Assembly: GCF_003334765.1 (NCBI RefSeq)
Contig: NZ_QOWT01000047.1
Direction: 5' to 3' (one strand)
Length of the DNA stretch: 21,426 bases
DNA from: Escherichia coli
Lineage (GTDB): Bacteria; Pseudomonadota; Gammaproteobacteria; Enterobacterales; Enterobacteriaceae
Every line of letters starts with the position of its first letter. The first letter of the stretch is position 1. The translations under genes were made by a program, and so were the position numbers. Below are positions 1 to 21,426 of this stretch, piece after piece. The notes beneath the pieces were generated by a model, which was not told where the DNA came from, did no database searches, and was given only the letters and a program-made list of their open reading frames with translations.

Positions 1-77
1 ATGACTCATGATGAACCCTGTTCCATGGCTCCAGATGACAAACATGATCTCATATCAGGGACTTGTTCGCACCTTCC
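1..77 (-). mobile_element. IS5-family insertion sequence, terminal 77 bp only (terminal inverted repeat plus start of transposase gene reading leftward off-window)
   Basis: Sequence matches the IS5 end as recalled (…ATGACTCATGATGAACCCTGTTC.ATGGCTCCAGATGACAAACATGATCTCATATCAGGGACTTGTTCGCACCTTCC), one mismatch. ATGAGTCAT (start of InsH-type transposase, MSH…) is the reverse complement of bases 1-9. Exact reverse complement of 21350-21426. Confidence 0.85.
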
Positions 78-1009
78 TTAAAGGTATAATCAGGAATGAT
101 ATCGATACCAAATTTTTTAGCATCTTTAACCAATGCAATAAAATCCTGCAAATCTCCCATTGGATTATGGATGGTACAAAGATCTTCGGGTTGATAAGCA
201 TGAAACCAGTAACCCTTTTCTTCTTCGGGAGTTTCTGGTCCGTCGGCGCGGAAAGTTGTCACTGGAGGGATTTGTATATACCCATAATGGCAACGTGCAA
301 ATTCAGACATATTTTCTCTGATCTGCTGGTAGGTGGCATTAAAAGCATGAAGAATCGCTTCGCCAGGTTTTTTGGGGGTGATGATTTCACATTGTGATTT
401 CTGAACAGCAGTAAGAGATTTACGCTCAAGTGTTTGCCGTAGATGTTCTAGATTGATTAATATTTTAAATGTTTCTTGCTGTCCGGAAGGTGACGTCACG
501 TTAATATTATATACATCGGCTGCCAGCTCATAGTCAGGAATGTTAATAGCATATGCAACATATTTATCTTTTGGGGAAGGTTTGTCAGATATAATGTGGG
601 TGAAATGTTCAGCACGACCATACTGATAAACACCGCTGTTATCACCTCTTTCAATCATTGTATCTCGTTGATAAACCTATGTTTTTCTTTCTCCTATCCT
701 GTCTGGCGCTGTAATGCTACGCTGTGCTGCTTTATTCAACTCTCGGTAAGTTGTATCTGGAGAAAGGGAAATTTTATAATCGTTTTTTAACAGATCATTA
801 ATAACTTTTTCTGCGTGAAAAGTTGATATAATTTCTCTGTCTTTTAATCCTTGAGGGTAAACTCCACAAGAATTAATAATATTTGTTATACAGTTTAGAT
901 ATTCTAATGTATTTAATTTGGAATTTAGATCCCCGTCAGTAATGTTCCATGATAACAATGTGGGGTTGTCGATAGGTAAATTTCTGGGTCCTGGTTTTAT
1001 AGAAAACAT
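50..1009 (-). pseudogene. Glycoside hydrolase family 13 (alpha-amylase-like) gene remnant, apparently frameshifted and 3'-truncated by the IS5 insertion (ygaQ-like)
   Basis: Two minus-strand ORFs in different frames (677-1009 and 50-658). The second contains GYWFHAYQPED…NPMGDLQDFIALVKDAKKFGIDIIPD, which fits the GH13 N-terminal pattern (GYd..DY..idp.fGt.edfk.Lv.eaHkrGikVilD). Its reading frame runs into the IS5 end at position 77. Whether the two ORFs are one gene is inference. Confidence 0.5.
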
Positions 1010-1568
1010 AATAAAGTTCCTCTAATGGTAGAGTAATATGATGTATACGGAAACATAAAAATGTTTAATTGTTGTGAAAGTAATTGCAAACAGATGTCCT
1101 ACTTTTATCCAATATTTATATGGAAAAGGATAATGCTTAAATCTGTTTTATTAATTATCGATGTGGTCTGGAGAGGCAACTGTCAAAAATCGCTCATACG
1201 AAACTAATGATTAGCAGAATAAGATCTATGAAAGAATATATTGCTATACGAAGTTTATTTTTATGGAGTGAAAAGTAACAGATATCATAATGATGCGAAA
1301 ACTCTTCAGCTAATGTAATAAAGTTATATTATTAGATACAAAATCATTACAAAGTATCATTGAATCGATGATAACTATAGATAGTGCTAATTATTAACAT
1401 TTGCTTGTTGACTGCGAGTATCGACTTTGCGAATGGAGGCGGTGTCGGGTTTTATGTCGCGTGTAATCACGACCCAAGGTGAATGGGAACGCATAAAAAT
1501 CTGTTATTTACATCATATGATCATCATGTTTATTGCGTGGTTTATAAGTATTGTTATTGCACACTCAA

Positions 1569-1644
1569 GGCCCTTTAGCTCAGTGGTTAGAGCAGGCGAC
1601 TCATAATCGCTTGGTCGCTGGTTCAAGTCCAGCAAGGGCCACCA
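1569..1644 (+). tRNA. ileY: tRNA-Ile2 (anticodon CAU, lysidine-type; ileX/ileY class)
   Basis: 76-nt cloverleaf: acceptor GGCCCTT/AAGGGCC, D-arm GCTC-AGTGGTTA-GAGC, anticodon arm GGCGA-CTCATAA-TCGCT (CAT at 34-36), T-arm GCTGG-TTCAAGT-CCAGC, 3' ACCA encoded. Near-identical to E. coli tRNA-Ile2 as recalled, with one compensatory pair change in the acceptor stem. Symbol ileY is chosen from the YpjA/pin/ygaQ-like neighbourhood; ileX cannot be excluded. Confidence 0.85.
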
Positions 1645-2394
1645 AATCATTATTTACGTATCAGGAAGAGTTAAGGGTACAAGGGGTACTCGATGGCGGT
1701 CTATATTTCATGACTAACGCCATTTCAAGGAAGAAGTGCGGTGGGTGGTTTCGAATGAGGGCTGGTGTTTTGGTACGTGGCACGCCACTGCAATGTATTT
1801 ATCCATCAGTACTCATTCAAAAGTACCTGGAAAAAATGCCTGCTATGCCAAGCGGGCAAATTGCTTACATGTGGAATTAAGTAATTAACGATAAAGCCAG
1901 AGTATTATCATTTATTATACCCCTTCATTTAATCAGGTTAATTACTCAAATCACTGAACTATTCTCTGTTCGCTCACTGATGATAAGTGAGTACCACAAC
2001 CAATGTATGTAGAACAATGCCGTAGAGTAAGGATGAAATGTCTCTGCCACGCCTTAAACATCTACTACTGACCAGAACACCCGCCGCAGGCAGATGAGTT
2101 TTGTGAGCGTTACAGGAGCGTGGCTATGCTCATTAACCAACGCTATTGAGATATAAATTTCTAACACTTGAAAAACGATTTTCACTAATAAATTATAACG
2201 GTTTTTTTTATCATACAGCGAAATAACCTTTTGTTTATTAAATTTAACATTCCTGTGCTAATTTAATTAAAAGTTCCATGCGTAGCAAGTGAAGCAGTTA
2301 ATGTCAGTAATTGTCTCAAATGAGCGTTTTTTTATAGTGACAAACAGTAATAACATTAAAAATAGCCATGTAGACATTAATTGAGGAATAGACA

Positions 2395-2877
2395 ATGTTA
2401 GTTAGTAAAAGCAACGGATTTAACGCTAGCGCAGTTTTGGGTAGTGGAAGTTATAATGAAAATAAATCTTCTAAACACATGGAGCTACTAGCTCATAGTA
2501 TTTTAAAATTAATTTGTAAGGAAGCTGCATCAGAGACGTATCGCGGTGCTCTTGAAACTTTACAAAAAATGATGTCTGAATGTATATATCAAGAAGGCAA
2601 CGCCTTTGTCATTATGGGAGCTGGAGAACAATTAAAACGTATTAAATATGAAGTTGGTGAAAATAACTTAAAGGTATTCAACGTACACTTTAATAATAAT
2701 CACGAGTTAGTTAGTTCTGGTGAGCCTGACGTAATATGTTTAAGCAAGCAGGTCTGGGAAAATCTTCTCATTAAACTAAAGCTGGAAAACAATGAAAATG
2801 TGTTTTCTGAAACTAAAAAATTATCGAATAAAAATAATGCCGATCAGTTTTTTGAATGCGCTAAAAGAAATGAATAG
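2395..2877 (+). CDS. Hypothetical protein (160 aa), AT-rich
   Basis: ATG with GAGGAA 6 nt upstream; uninterrupted 160-codon ORF; no recognisable motif. Low GC suggests horizontally acquired DNA. Confidence 0.45.
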   Translation: MLVSKSNGFNASAVLGSGSYNENKSSKHMELLAHSILKLICKEAASETYRGALETLQKMMSECIYQEGNAFVIMGAGEQLKRIKYEVGENNLKVFNVHFNNNHELVSSGEPDVICLSKQVWENLLIKLKLENNENVFSETKKLSNKNNADQFFECAKRNE

Positions 2878-20110: not shown

Positions 20111-20668
20111 TTACTAGAGATGAAACTGGTTGATTGTAATCCCGGTCGACCGTTACTCTATGTTTATCCGGATAATTTTGGCGTACACATTAAGTGAAGA
20201 AAACTTCAAAGTGATTTGAAACAGATGTTGTATTCACTGGCTCATTTACATTAACTTGAGTGTTGTTCAGCACATGTTGAAACGCAGCTGTAAGGAAGAT
20301 GATACAGCCAAGATGTATCCTTCATTATGGGGATTGGCGCGATGACCACCACGGCTTAGCCCGATTGATTATTTGGAAATTGATTAGAATGCATAATCTG
20401 GGCTGAGCTCACTTAAAGTCTCTAATGTTTGACTTGGAGATTTGGGGGGCAGTGGCTTTCAGTTTTGTTAACTCTAACATCTGGTTTACGTTCCTTTTGG
20501 AACAAGAAGCAGAGGTCTGCTAAGTAATGGTTGTACTGCTTGTGATAGGTATGACTGCATGTTCAGCGAGCAAGAATGGCTTAAAAGTTCTGTTACTGAG
20601 CACCCCATGAAGTTAGAACGATGTCATAACGTGCACGTAACCGTTGAACTGTTCTCTTACAGATAATC

Positions 20669-20707
20669 TCTACATAGCTATTATTGCTTAGGCGGTAGCT
20701 ATGTAGA
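20669..20707 (+). terminator. Perfect 12-bp inverted repeat hairpin followed by T-run (terminator or operator candidate)
   Basis: TCTACATAGCTA-(15 nt)-TAGCTATGTAGA followed by TGGTTTTTG; lies about 75 bp upstream of the NTPase start. Confidence 0.4.
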
Positions 20708-20784
20708 TGGTTTTTGTAATATTATATTAAAAGTTCATACAGCGACTATAGCATCATTGCGAAAAATATCAGGAGGTGAGTTTA

Positions 20785-21349
20785 ATGTTACGAAAAAGCA
20801 AACTTACAGAGATATATAAAAGGTTTGGTTTTACTGAAGAAAATACAGGTAACGAAAGTATTGCTGTATATTCTATTAAAACAGGGCACTACCATAACGC
20901 GGACATACTTCCACTAAATAATGAGGTTAATGTAAATCAAACCTTTGAAGAATATAGGCAGTTAGGTTATGCATGTCAAATTAAAAAATATCAGTCTTAT
21001 GAAGAAGCACATAAGGAATTATTTAATGGCTTCTTTAGCGTCGATTCAACTAAAGAAAGGTTGATTAAAGATTATAATACTTTCACAGATTCAATTGTAA
21101 AAATTCACTCACCTACTGCAACTTATTCCTACATAAATTCAAAATATTACTTAAATGGTGTTATTGGCGAAGCTAATGTTGTTACGGAAATATTAGAGAG
21201 AATACAACATAGGCGTCCAATTCTGTTTTTGATTGAGGCTGCAGCCGGTTTTGGAAAGACTTGCACGGCGTATGAATTATTGAGGGAGATTATAGTTAAC
21301 AATATAGGGAAAATACCATTATTTTCAGAACTATCAAGGAATAGGCAAG
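20785..21349 (+). pseudogene. P-loop NTPase gene (N-terminal unknown domain plus Walker A), 3'-truncated by IS5 insertion
   Basis: AGGAGG RBS 8 nt upstream of ATG 20785 (MLRKSKLTEIYKRFGF…). Walker A …PILFLIEAAAGFGKTCTAYEL… lies about 160 aa in. The reading frame runs straight into the IS5 terminal repeat at 21350 and the in-frame stop is IS-derived. Confidence 0.6.
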
Positions 21350-21426
21350 GGAAGGTGCGAACAAGTCCCTGATATGAGATCATGTTTGTCATCTGGAGCC
21401 ATGGAACAGGGTTCATCATGAGTCAT
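21350..21426 (+). mobile_element. IS5-family insertion sequence, terminal 77 bp (transposase gene begins at 21418 and runs off-window)
   Basis: GGAAGGTGCGAACAAGTCCCTGATATGAGATCATG… is the IS5 terminal repeat; ATGAGTCAT at 21418-21426 is the transposase start. Exact reverse complement of 1-77. Confidence 0.85.

Follow-up and report, generated by a model that had tools for sequence, protein, structure and literature searches.

The 21,426-bp stretch analysed here (the window) makes up all of contig QOWT01000047.1 in the draft assembly GCA_003334765.1. It is very likely a complete contig, assembled from short reads of an E. coli isolate with two inverted IS5 insertions, its ends being set by a k-mer length of 77. 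Under this explanation, two IS5 elements would have inserted 21,272 bp apart and in opposite orientation, with their transposase-start ends facing the segment between them. One would have entered a TTAA in an already decayed ygaQ-like amylase pseudogene, and the other a CAAG in a gene for a NACHT-type NTPase that belongs to an integrated island, cutting the gene after codon 188. Both junctions are real insertion alleles, and the same junctions recur in independent data sets. The insertions are ordinary IS5 insertions of an already known kind, and the overall importance of the finding is small. The result shows that a perfect terminal inverted repeat can be no more than two contig ends at the same repeat, with a length set by the assembler. 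The biological content is a pair of lineage-specific insertions, of which one lies in a dead gene and the other probably inactivates a candidate NACHT-type defence gene. They may serve as clonal markers and as a further case in which an IS inactivates an accessory gene. A literature search found no paper for QOWT01, GCA_003334765, ERR271232 or the protein accessions. Features are listed in Table 1.

Table 1. Features of the 21,426-bp window, in window coordinates.
Feature	Position	Strand	Remark
Transposase-start end of IS5 copy	1..77	-	Contig ends here; 76/77 to MC1061 IS5, 100% to IS5 in many genomes
TTAA, 4-bp IS5 target, left junction	78..81	.	Fits canonical YTAR; one copy of the presumed duplication visible
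ygaQ-like GH13 (alpha-amylase family) pseudogene, first ~310 codons	78..1009	-	IS5 cut inside catalytic-domain match
Intervening chromosomal segment	82..21345	.	Colinear with IS-free E. coli genomes
ileY tRNA	1569-1644
ypjCB pseudogene	within 82..21345
pin-like remnant	within 82..21345
ypjA/ehaD autotransporter	4679-9259		Intact
Integrated mobilisable island, part only	within 82..21345		Comprises the next five entries
DUF6387	within 82..21345
AlpA-like HTH	within 82..21345
MobP-type relaxase	15842-17077	-
Ankyrin protein	17683-18636	-
DUF4928/type II REase fragment	within 82..21345
Truncated NACHT/NA-iREase2 STAND NTPase gene	20785..21372	+	188 native codons
CAAG, 4-bp target, right junction	21346..21349	.	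Non-canonical for IS5, off YTAR consensus
Transposase-start end of second IS5 copy, inverted relative to first	21350..21426	+	Contig ends here

As the original prediction had claimed, the first and last 77 nt are exact reverse complements. A repeat search of the window recovered them as an inverted repeat with 100% complementarity over 77 nt and 21,272 nt between the arms, both of which are contig ends, and a chance origin of such a match is effectively impossible. The 16-bp terminal inverted repeat of IS5, GGAAGGTGCGAA(C/T)AAG, was present at 62-77 (its reverse complement reading GGAAGGTGCGAACAAG) and at 21350-21365, with one end of each copy visible. Positions 7-9, read as reverse complement, give the ins5 start codon, and the annotated IS5 transposase start lies 69 nt from the element end. 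Only three codons (Met-Ser-His) are contained at each end, and the transposase reads out of the window on both sides (9 to 1 on the left, 21418 to 21426 on the right), which bears out the earlier statement that the same IS5 end occurs twice with the transposases running outward. Compared with the IS5 of K-12 MC1061, the 77-mer matched at 76 of 77 positions, with a single difference at position 24 (C for T), and many complete genomes, among them MG1655, have IS5 copies that match it at 100%. The 77-mer was found in 1,527 of 5,426 complete genomes (median 2 places, maximum 28).

Since the visible part of each copy is confined to 77 nt and the assembly graph obliges the two ends to be identical, the ends might instead belong to IS5 fragments, solo ends or different IS5-family variants that depart from a complete, identical pair beyond this point. 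We regard this as very improbable. At the right junction in GCA_965137835.1, the sequence continues for 97 nt as IS5 (97/97 bases matching, reading MSHQLTFADS) and runs into the transposase gene. Furthermore, the window ends fit IS5 and match ISKpn26 at only 58 of 77 positions, and in complete genomes most places with this 77-mer coincide with annotated IS5 transposase genes. Each end is probably part of a complete 1,195-bp IS5 with a 4-bp target duplication, of which 77 nt per copy are visible here and 97 nt elsewhere.

The same junctions were assembled to different depths into IS5 in otherwise identical sequence: 77 nt at both ends here, 97 nt in GCA_965137835.1, 28 nt in each of two Logan assemblies (ERR271232 and SRR10357268) and 26 nt in each of two (ERR271232 and ERR14335420), with ERR271232 containing both the left and the right junction. 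Because the depth differs between assemblies of the same junctions, the 77-nt length and the perfect identity reflect the k-mer of the assembler and not biology. IS5 is repeated in the genome, so the graph branches at the first k-mer lying wholly inside the element and the contig stops 77 bases into each copy. Terminating at a repeat makes the two ends identical by construction, and their identity is therefore no evidence on the full copies. The largest k of the GCA_003334765.1 assembly was probably 77, which is also the largest default k of SPAdes. This is a textbook case of a de Bruijn graph contig broken at a repeated IS, in which both contig ends likewise lie one k-mer inside the repeat and the penetration depth depends on the assembler (77, 97 and 26-28 nt here), and we noted no difference from it.

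At the left junction, the interrupted gene gave Pfam matches to Alpha-amylase and Alpha-amylase_C. The original prediction held that IS5 truncates a GH13-like gene here; the interruption is supported by IS-free genomes and the GH13 likeness by Pfam, whereas the gene itself was already dead. In the window, it has a stop at codon 111 (677-679) that is older than the IS5 cut, and stops at codons 346 and 614 were present in all three IS-free genomes examined. Given these internal stops in the window and in IS-free genomes, no working gene was inactivated by the left IS5. The target fits the IS5 consensus YTAR (PMC5009759). In strain SW070919, this TTAA is occupied by ISKpn26 and duplicated (TTAA/TTAA), which makes the site a proven IS5-family target. 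Two strains were rejected as carriers of the left junction itself, namely SW070919, whose element is ISKpn26 and not IS5, and MC1061, whose IS5 lies 285 bp away with a TTAG duplication.

At the right junction, the claim that IS5 truncates an NTPase gene was borne out by the cut at codon 188 and by an intact gene of 701 aa in strain AF58. The remaining stub has 188 native and 7 IS5-encoded codons before a stop at 21370-21372, giving 195 residues, and its Walker A motif (GFGKT) lies about 30 residues before the junction. The gene has probably been functionally knocked out by IS5. In Pfam, the disrupted NTPase matched NA-iREase2 (E = 3e-33) and, weakly, NACHT (E = 0.008), and its RefSeq name is NACHT domain-containing protein. 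The protein had no match among PADLOC models and only sub-threshold matches in NCBIfam. A gene with a RelA/SpoT domain overlaps the NACHT gene and comes after it. The tripartite layout of bNACHT anti-phage proteins (PMC12169576), with an N-terminal domain resembling restriction endonucleases, a central P-loop region and repeats at the C-terminus, is also seen in the disrupted gene, although its NACHT match is weak. It differs from bNACHT proteins in lacking a PADLOC model match, in having an N-terminal domain from a Pfam family of inactive REases (PF22723) and in being followed by the overlapping RelA/SpoT-domain gene; judged from sequence, a defence role is a candidate function.

The target at this junction, CAAG, is one of the 24 IS5 targets listed by ISfinder (PMC5493358 Table 3). 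It is at odds with the strong YTAR preference of the element and counts against the explanation by two IS5 insertions. With other IS5 insertion polymorphisms in E. coli, the window shares the element's terminal inverted repeat and transposase start, the interruption of genes, a YTAR target (left site) and a tendency to insert near an existing copy, and it differs in the rare CAAG target at the right site. None of the 5,426 complete genomes had this insertion pair, whose occurrences were confined to a few draft or Logan assemblies.

The original prediction had proposed comparison with genomes lacking IS5. In 56 complete E. coli genomes, 78-21349 was colinear at 99.8-100% identity with no IS5 at either point; together with the intact NACHT gene of AF58, this comparison recovered the ancestral order. 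With inverted IS copies on either side of 21 kb, the arrangement is shaped like a composite transposon, which could have moved as a unit; the junctions might also be assembly chimeras. Either reading is hardly credible here. The inner flanks are ancestral neighbours cut at two gene-internal points, and in complete genomes the segment occurred only at its ancestral chromosomal position, between ygaQ and the island. A composite transposon was rejected on this single location, and a chimeric assembly was rejected since independent assemblies reproduce the junctions to the base.

The two insertions being as described, the 21.3-kb segment might since have been inverted, or might be flipping in the population, by homologous recombination, for which inverted repeats of 1.2 kb are a known substrate. 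Inversions mediated by IS elements occur commonly in evolving E. coli (PMC5009759), and the inner junctions would look alike in either orientation. Nevertheless, we consider an inversion unlikely: positive evidence for it is absent, no contig longer than the window contained either junction, and the right junction was found in none of the 5,426 complete genomes. The earlier suggestion of an inversion substrate thus stands insofar as there are two inverted copies of one IS, as in the IS-mediated inversions of the long-term evolution lines (cited in PMC5009759). In those lines inversions occurred, whereas here there is the substrate only; the window itself gives no support for an inversion, and short reads give no signal for such events (PMC5009759).

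The second copy probably arose by ordinary transposition, possibly as a local hop, IS5 being the most active IS in E. coli and preferring sites near an existing copy (PMC5009759). That same bias for nearby sites would suit a one-step alternative, in which a single IS5 in ygaQ attacked CAAG on the same chromosome (intramolecular transposition), producing a second inverted copy and an inverted segment at once. Such an event yields exactly the inner junctions seen here, in which the same IS end points towards the segment from left and right. It is very unlikely, as IS5 events in mutation-accumulation lines are predominantly simple insertions (PMC5009759) and an independent insertion accounts for the same facts. 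If true, this lineage would have the 21.3-kb segment, ileY and the ypjA adhesin gene included, in inverted orientation, the locus would be a natural record of inversion-type IS5 transposition, and the same event would have knocked out a candidate NACHT and RelA/SpoT defence module. To our knowledge, the mechanism of inversion-type transposition by IS5 has never been directly studied.

For two simple insertions, the expected outer junctions are ...CATAAAGTTAA joined to GGAAGGTGCGAATAAG and ...CTTATTCGCACCTTCC joined to CAAGCAAAAATATTCAGG (also given as ...CCCAATTCCCATAAAGTTAA joined to GGAAGGTGCGAATAAGCGGGG and ...CCCCGCTTATTCGCACCTTCC joined to CAAGCAAAAATATTCAGGTATG). JGI metagenome contigs were scanned for the exact right outer junction, with a gap of 0-8 bases permitted between IS5 end and flank, and gave no match. 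Predicted contigs consisting of the far IS5 end and the rest of the NACHT gene were also modelled, and their products were looked up. The predicted 453-aa and 496-aa products were on record only on contigs where the gene is broken otherwise, by a frameshift, a nonsense codon or IS3, and are not diagnostic. Two edge-truncated products were not on record in an exact look-up.

With regard to expression, a promoter and terminator scan at the left junction remained at background level. The proposal that outward-facing IS5 ends may alter the expression of neighbours has a documented route, the fucAO fusion promoter, in which a transcript starting at the IS5 5' end runs through the element (PMC11894529). 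It does not extend to genes inside the window: transcription from the IS5 5' end points away from the window at both junctions, so any such effect would fall on genes outside it.

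The first and last 77 bases of the window match exactly as reverse complements, with 21,272 bases between them, as established by a repeat search and by direct reading. Read inward, either end runs from ATGACTCAT to the terminus ...CTTGTTCGCACCTTCC, which is the 16-bp inverted repeat of IS5; read in reverse complement, ATGACTCAT gives the Met-Ser-His with which the IS5 transposase begins. The 77-mer differs from the annotated IS5 of the K-12 derivative MC1061 at a single base (position 24), is 100% identical to IS5 copies of many complete genomes, including MG1655, and is present in 1,527 of 5,426 complete E. 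coli genomes (median 2 places, maximum 28). Given these matches and the Met-Ser-His start, both window ends are the same, transposase-start end of an ordinary IS5; the features testable on the visible end, namely the inverted repeat and sequence identity, are those of IS5. The original prediction of one shared IS5 end on both sides was thus confirmed, as was that of transposase genes running outward, since the Met-Ser-His start reads out of the window in both of the mutually inverted copies.

The window is the entire contig QOWT01000047.1 (21,426 bp) of a draft assembly, GCA_003334765.1, as found by searching for exact copies of the truncated protein encoded at its right end. Its right junction recurs in GCA_965137835.1 and in the Logan short-read assemblies ERR271232 and SRR10357268, and its left junction in Logan assemblies ERR271232 and ERR14335420, on contigs identical to the window across the overlap with the exception of two N calls. 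These contigs likewise end inside IS5, at depths of 97, 28, 28, 26 and 26 bases; in GCA_965137835.1, the 97 bases continue as IS5 and read MSHQLTFADS. Because the depths into IS5 differ at the same junctions, the repeat length of 77 and the flawless match between its arms stem from the assembly and are uninformative on the rest of the elements. At a repeat, the unique path of a de Bruijn graph assembler stops at the first k-mer wholly within the repeat; k is 31 in Logan, and SPAdes goes up to 77 by default. The perfect 77-nt terminal inverted repeat, the most eye-catching property of the window, is an assembly artefact.

A megablast search of the 5,426 complete genomes found bases 78-21349 colinear, at 99.8-100% identity, in 56 genomes, in some of which the stretch was interrupted by another IS. 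None of these 56 had IS5 at either boundary, and the right junction was absent from all 5,426. In TUM3755, window base 78 falls within a 2,253-bp pseudogene annotated as alpha amylase C-terminal domain-containing protein and base 21349 within a hypothetical gene. AF58 has four differences from the window over 21 kb, and there the gene on the right encodes an intact 701-residue NACHT domain-containing protein. Comparison with IS5-free relatives, as originally proposed, thus supplied both the uninterrupted order and an intact NACHT gene. A composite transposon was rejected because the segment sits in its ancestral context in the complete genomes.

The window is best explained by IS5 having transposed twice, in the ordinary way, within a single lineage; at least two data sets, the window and ERR271232, contain both junctions. 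Among the IS elements of E. coli, IS5 was the most active in mutation-accumulation lines, and its landings within 50 kb of an existing copy numbered 119 against 73 expected (PMC5009759); with this bias to nearby sites, two copies lying 21 kb apart are unremarkable. Each window end would then belong to a complete 1,195-bp IS5 with a 4-bp duplication beyond its far side, and the segment would still be in its ancestral orientation. Alternatively, recombination between the inverted copies may have flipped the segment, or intramolecular transposition may have produced the second copy together with an inversion; either event would leave the inner junctions, facing the segment, the same as in the ancestral orientation. 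Inversions between inverted IS copies give no signal in short-read data (Lee et al., PMC5009759), and the outer junctions were not recovered by look-ups of the predicted products or by an exact-pattern scan of metagenome contigs. Everything observed fits what is known of IS5 and of short-read assemblers, and the IS5-bounded window is a real finding, but an ordinary one.

At the right junction, IS5 adjoins CAAG, and the IS-free sequence there runs ...GGCAAG and then CAAAAATATT. CAAG lies outside the YTAR consensus and is a rare but documented target, being 1 of 24 IS5 targets in ISfinder (table in PMC5493358). The gene cut here encodes a protein that carries NA-iREase2 at its N terminus (E = 3e-33), matches NACHT weakly (E = 0.008) and contains the Walker A sequence GFGKT. 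The predicted truncation of this NTPase gene was borne out: the insertion lies at codon 188, about 30 residues past Walker A, and leaves a 195-residue stub (seven residues IS5-encoded) in place of the 701 residues of AF58, a predicted plain loss-of-function allele. The stub is rare (2 contigs in a cluster table and 4 in an exact-protein look-up), and the intact protein, on at least 1,000 contigs, is still the commonest form.

The NACHT gene has also been broken independently, in many ways, in other E. coli, according to a list biased by its origin in a search for truncated products. The lesions include CAA to TAA at codon 188 (window position 21346), directly at the IS5 site, and TGC to TGA in the region of Walker A. 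Frameshifts have split the gene in at least two ways, into 252+453 aa and into 349+332 aa; the products of the second split are on 537 and 284 contigs. Other copies carry deletions, an IS3 lying about 20 bp upstream of where IS5 sits, or a further insertion of the IS3 family. The NACHT gene of AF58 shares one base with the start of the RelA/SpoT-domain gene that follows it (301 aa); the product of the latter weakly matches a small alarmone synthetase model and the PADLOC candidate PDC-S33. Together the two genes resemble a conflict module, as yet uncharacterised, and the IS5 insertion would part the RelA/SpoT-domain gene from its upstream partner.

At the left junction, IS5 adjoins TTAA, a canonical YTAR target (PMC5009759). 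The interrupted ygaQ-like gene matches Pfam Alpha-amylase (residues 264-519) and Alpha-amylase_C, so the label GH13-like is fair, and the insertion falls after codon ~310, within the catalytic-domain match. The predicted disruption stands as a cut, but the gene was already a pseudogene apart from IS5, given a stop at codon 111 in the window and stops at codons 346 and 614 in all three IS-free genomes examined. IS5-family elements have targeted this pseudogene repeatedly: SW070919 carries ISKpn26 (~92% identical to IS5) at exactly this TTAA, oriented the same way and with a TTAA duplication; MC1061 has an IS5 285 bp from the left site, with a TTAG duplication; and W2-5 has one within the neighbouring ypjCB gene.

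At fucAO, the characterised case, the transposase promoter, located in the 5' end of IS5, initiates transcription that crosses the element and continues into the genes beyond it (PMC11894529). Because both IS5 5' ends point toward the intervening segment, read-through of this type would exit the window on both sides, reaching, by analogy, the rest of ygaQ and glaH on the left and the NACHT remainder with the RelA/SpoT gene on the right. A promoter and terminator scan at the left junction found nothing suggestive of an effect on genes within the window.

Coordinates of features in the window and in comparison loci (L-numbers, each with its own coordinates)
Feature	Window	Comparison loci	Remarks
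TTAA at left junction	78-81
IS5-family elements at ygaQ-like pseudogene	78-81 (for comparison)	L002 2882-4081; L003 2883-4077
Codon 111 stop, ygaQ-like gene	677-679
tRNA	1569-1644		ARAGORN: tRNA-Met (anticodon CAT); RefSeq: tRNA-Ile; Rfam: tRNA only
ypjA/ehaD	4679-9259		Intact ORF in window and AF58; pseudogene in TUM3755
49-bp tandem repeat	13438-13566		2.6 copies, 76% matches
IS3 site	15094-15098	L006 1-119; L011 20086-21276
Private SNP (A)	15788
TGGCAC hexamer array	16199-16244		7.7 copies, perfect; inside relaxase gene
89-aa ORF	19673-19945		Matches C-terminal part of a PADLOC model for a type II restriction enzyme (E = 1.5e-41)
NACHT gene and its lesions	20785-21349	L001, L004, L012-L029
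CAAG at right junction	21346-21349
NACHT and RelA/SpoT-domain genes, AF58	right of 21426	L011 26967-29977

Further observations concern the segment and its relatives. GCA_965137835.1, like the window, has the private SNP and the IS5 that cuts the NACHT gene, and it carries an IS3 that AF58 has at the identical position; the window is without this IS3, and AF58 is without the IS5 and the SNP. A single gain of each character cannot explain all three, and the pattern needs repeated insertion, precise excision or recombination. The RefSeq annotation of the tRNA, together with its CAT anticodon, suggests ileY, in which this anticodon is modified and reads AUA. Strains differ in the copy number of the hexamer array, which is 12 nt shorter or 6 nt longer in some, so that relaxase length ranges from 407 to 423 aa. 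The 49-bp repeat, which lies in a ~1-kb island stretch without an annotated gene (12991 to 14031), might represent iterons or a transfer origin. The region of the 89-aa ORF is annotated as DUF4928 fragments, and this, with the PADLOC match, marks it as a decayed restriction gene.
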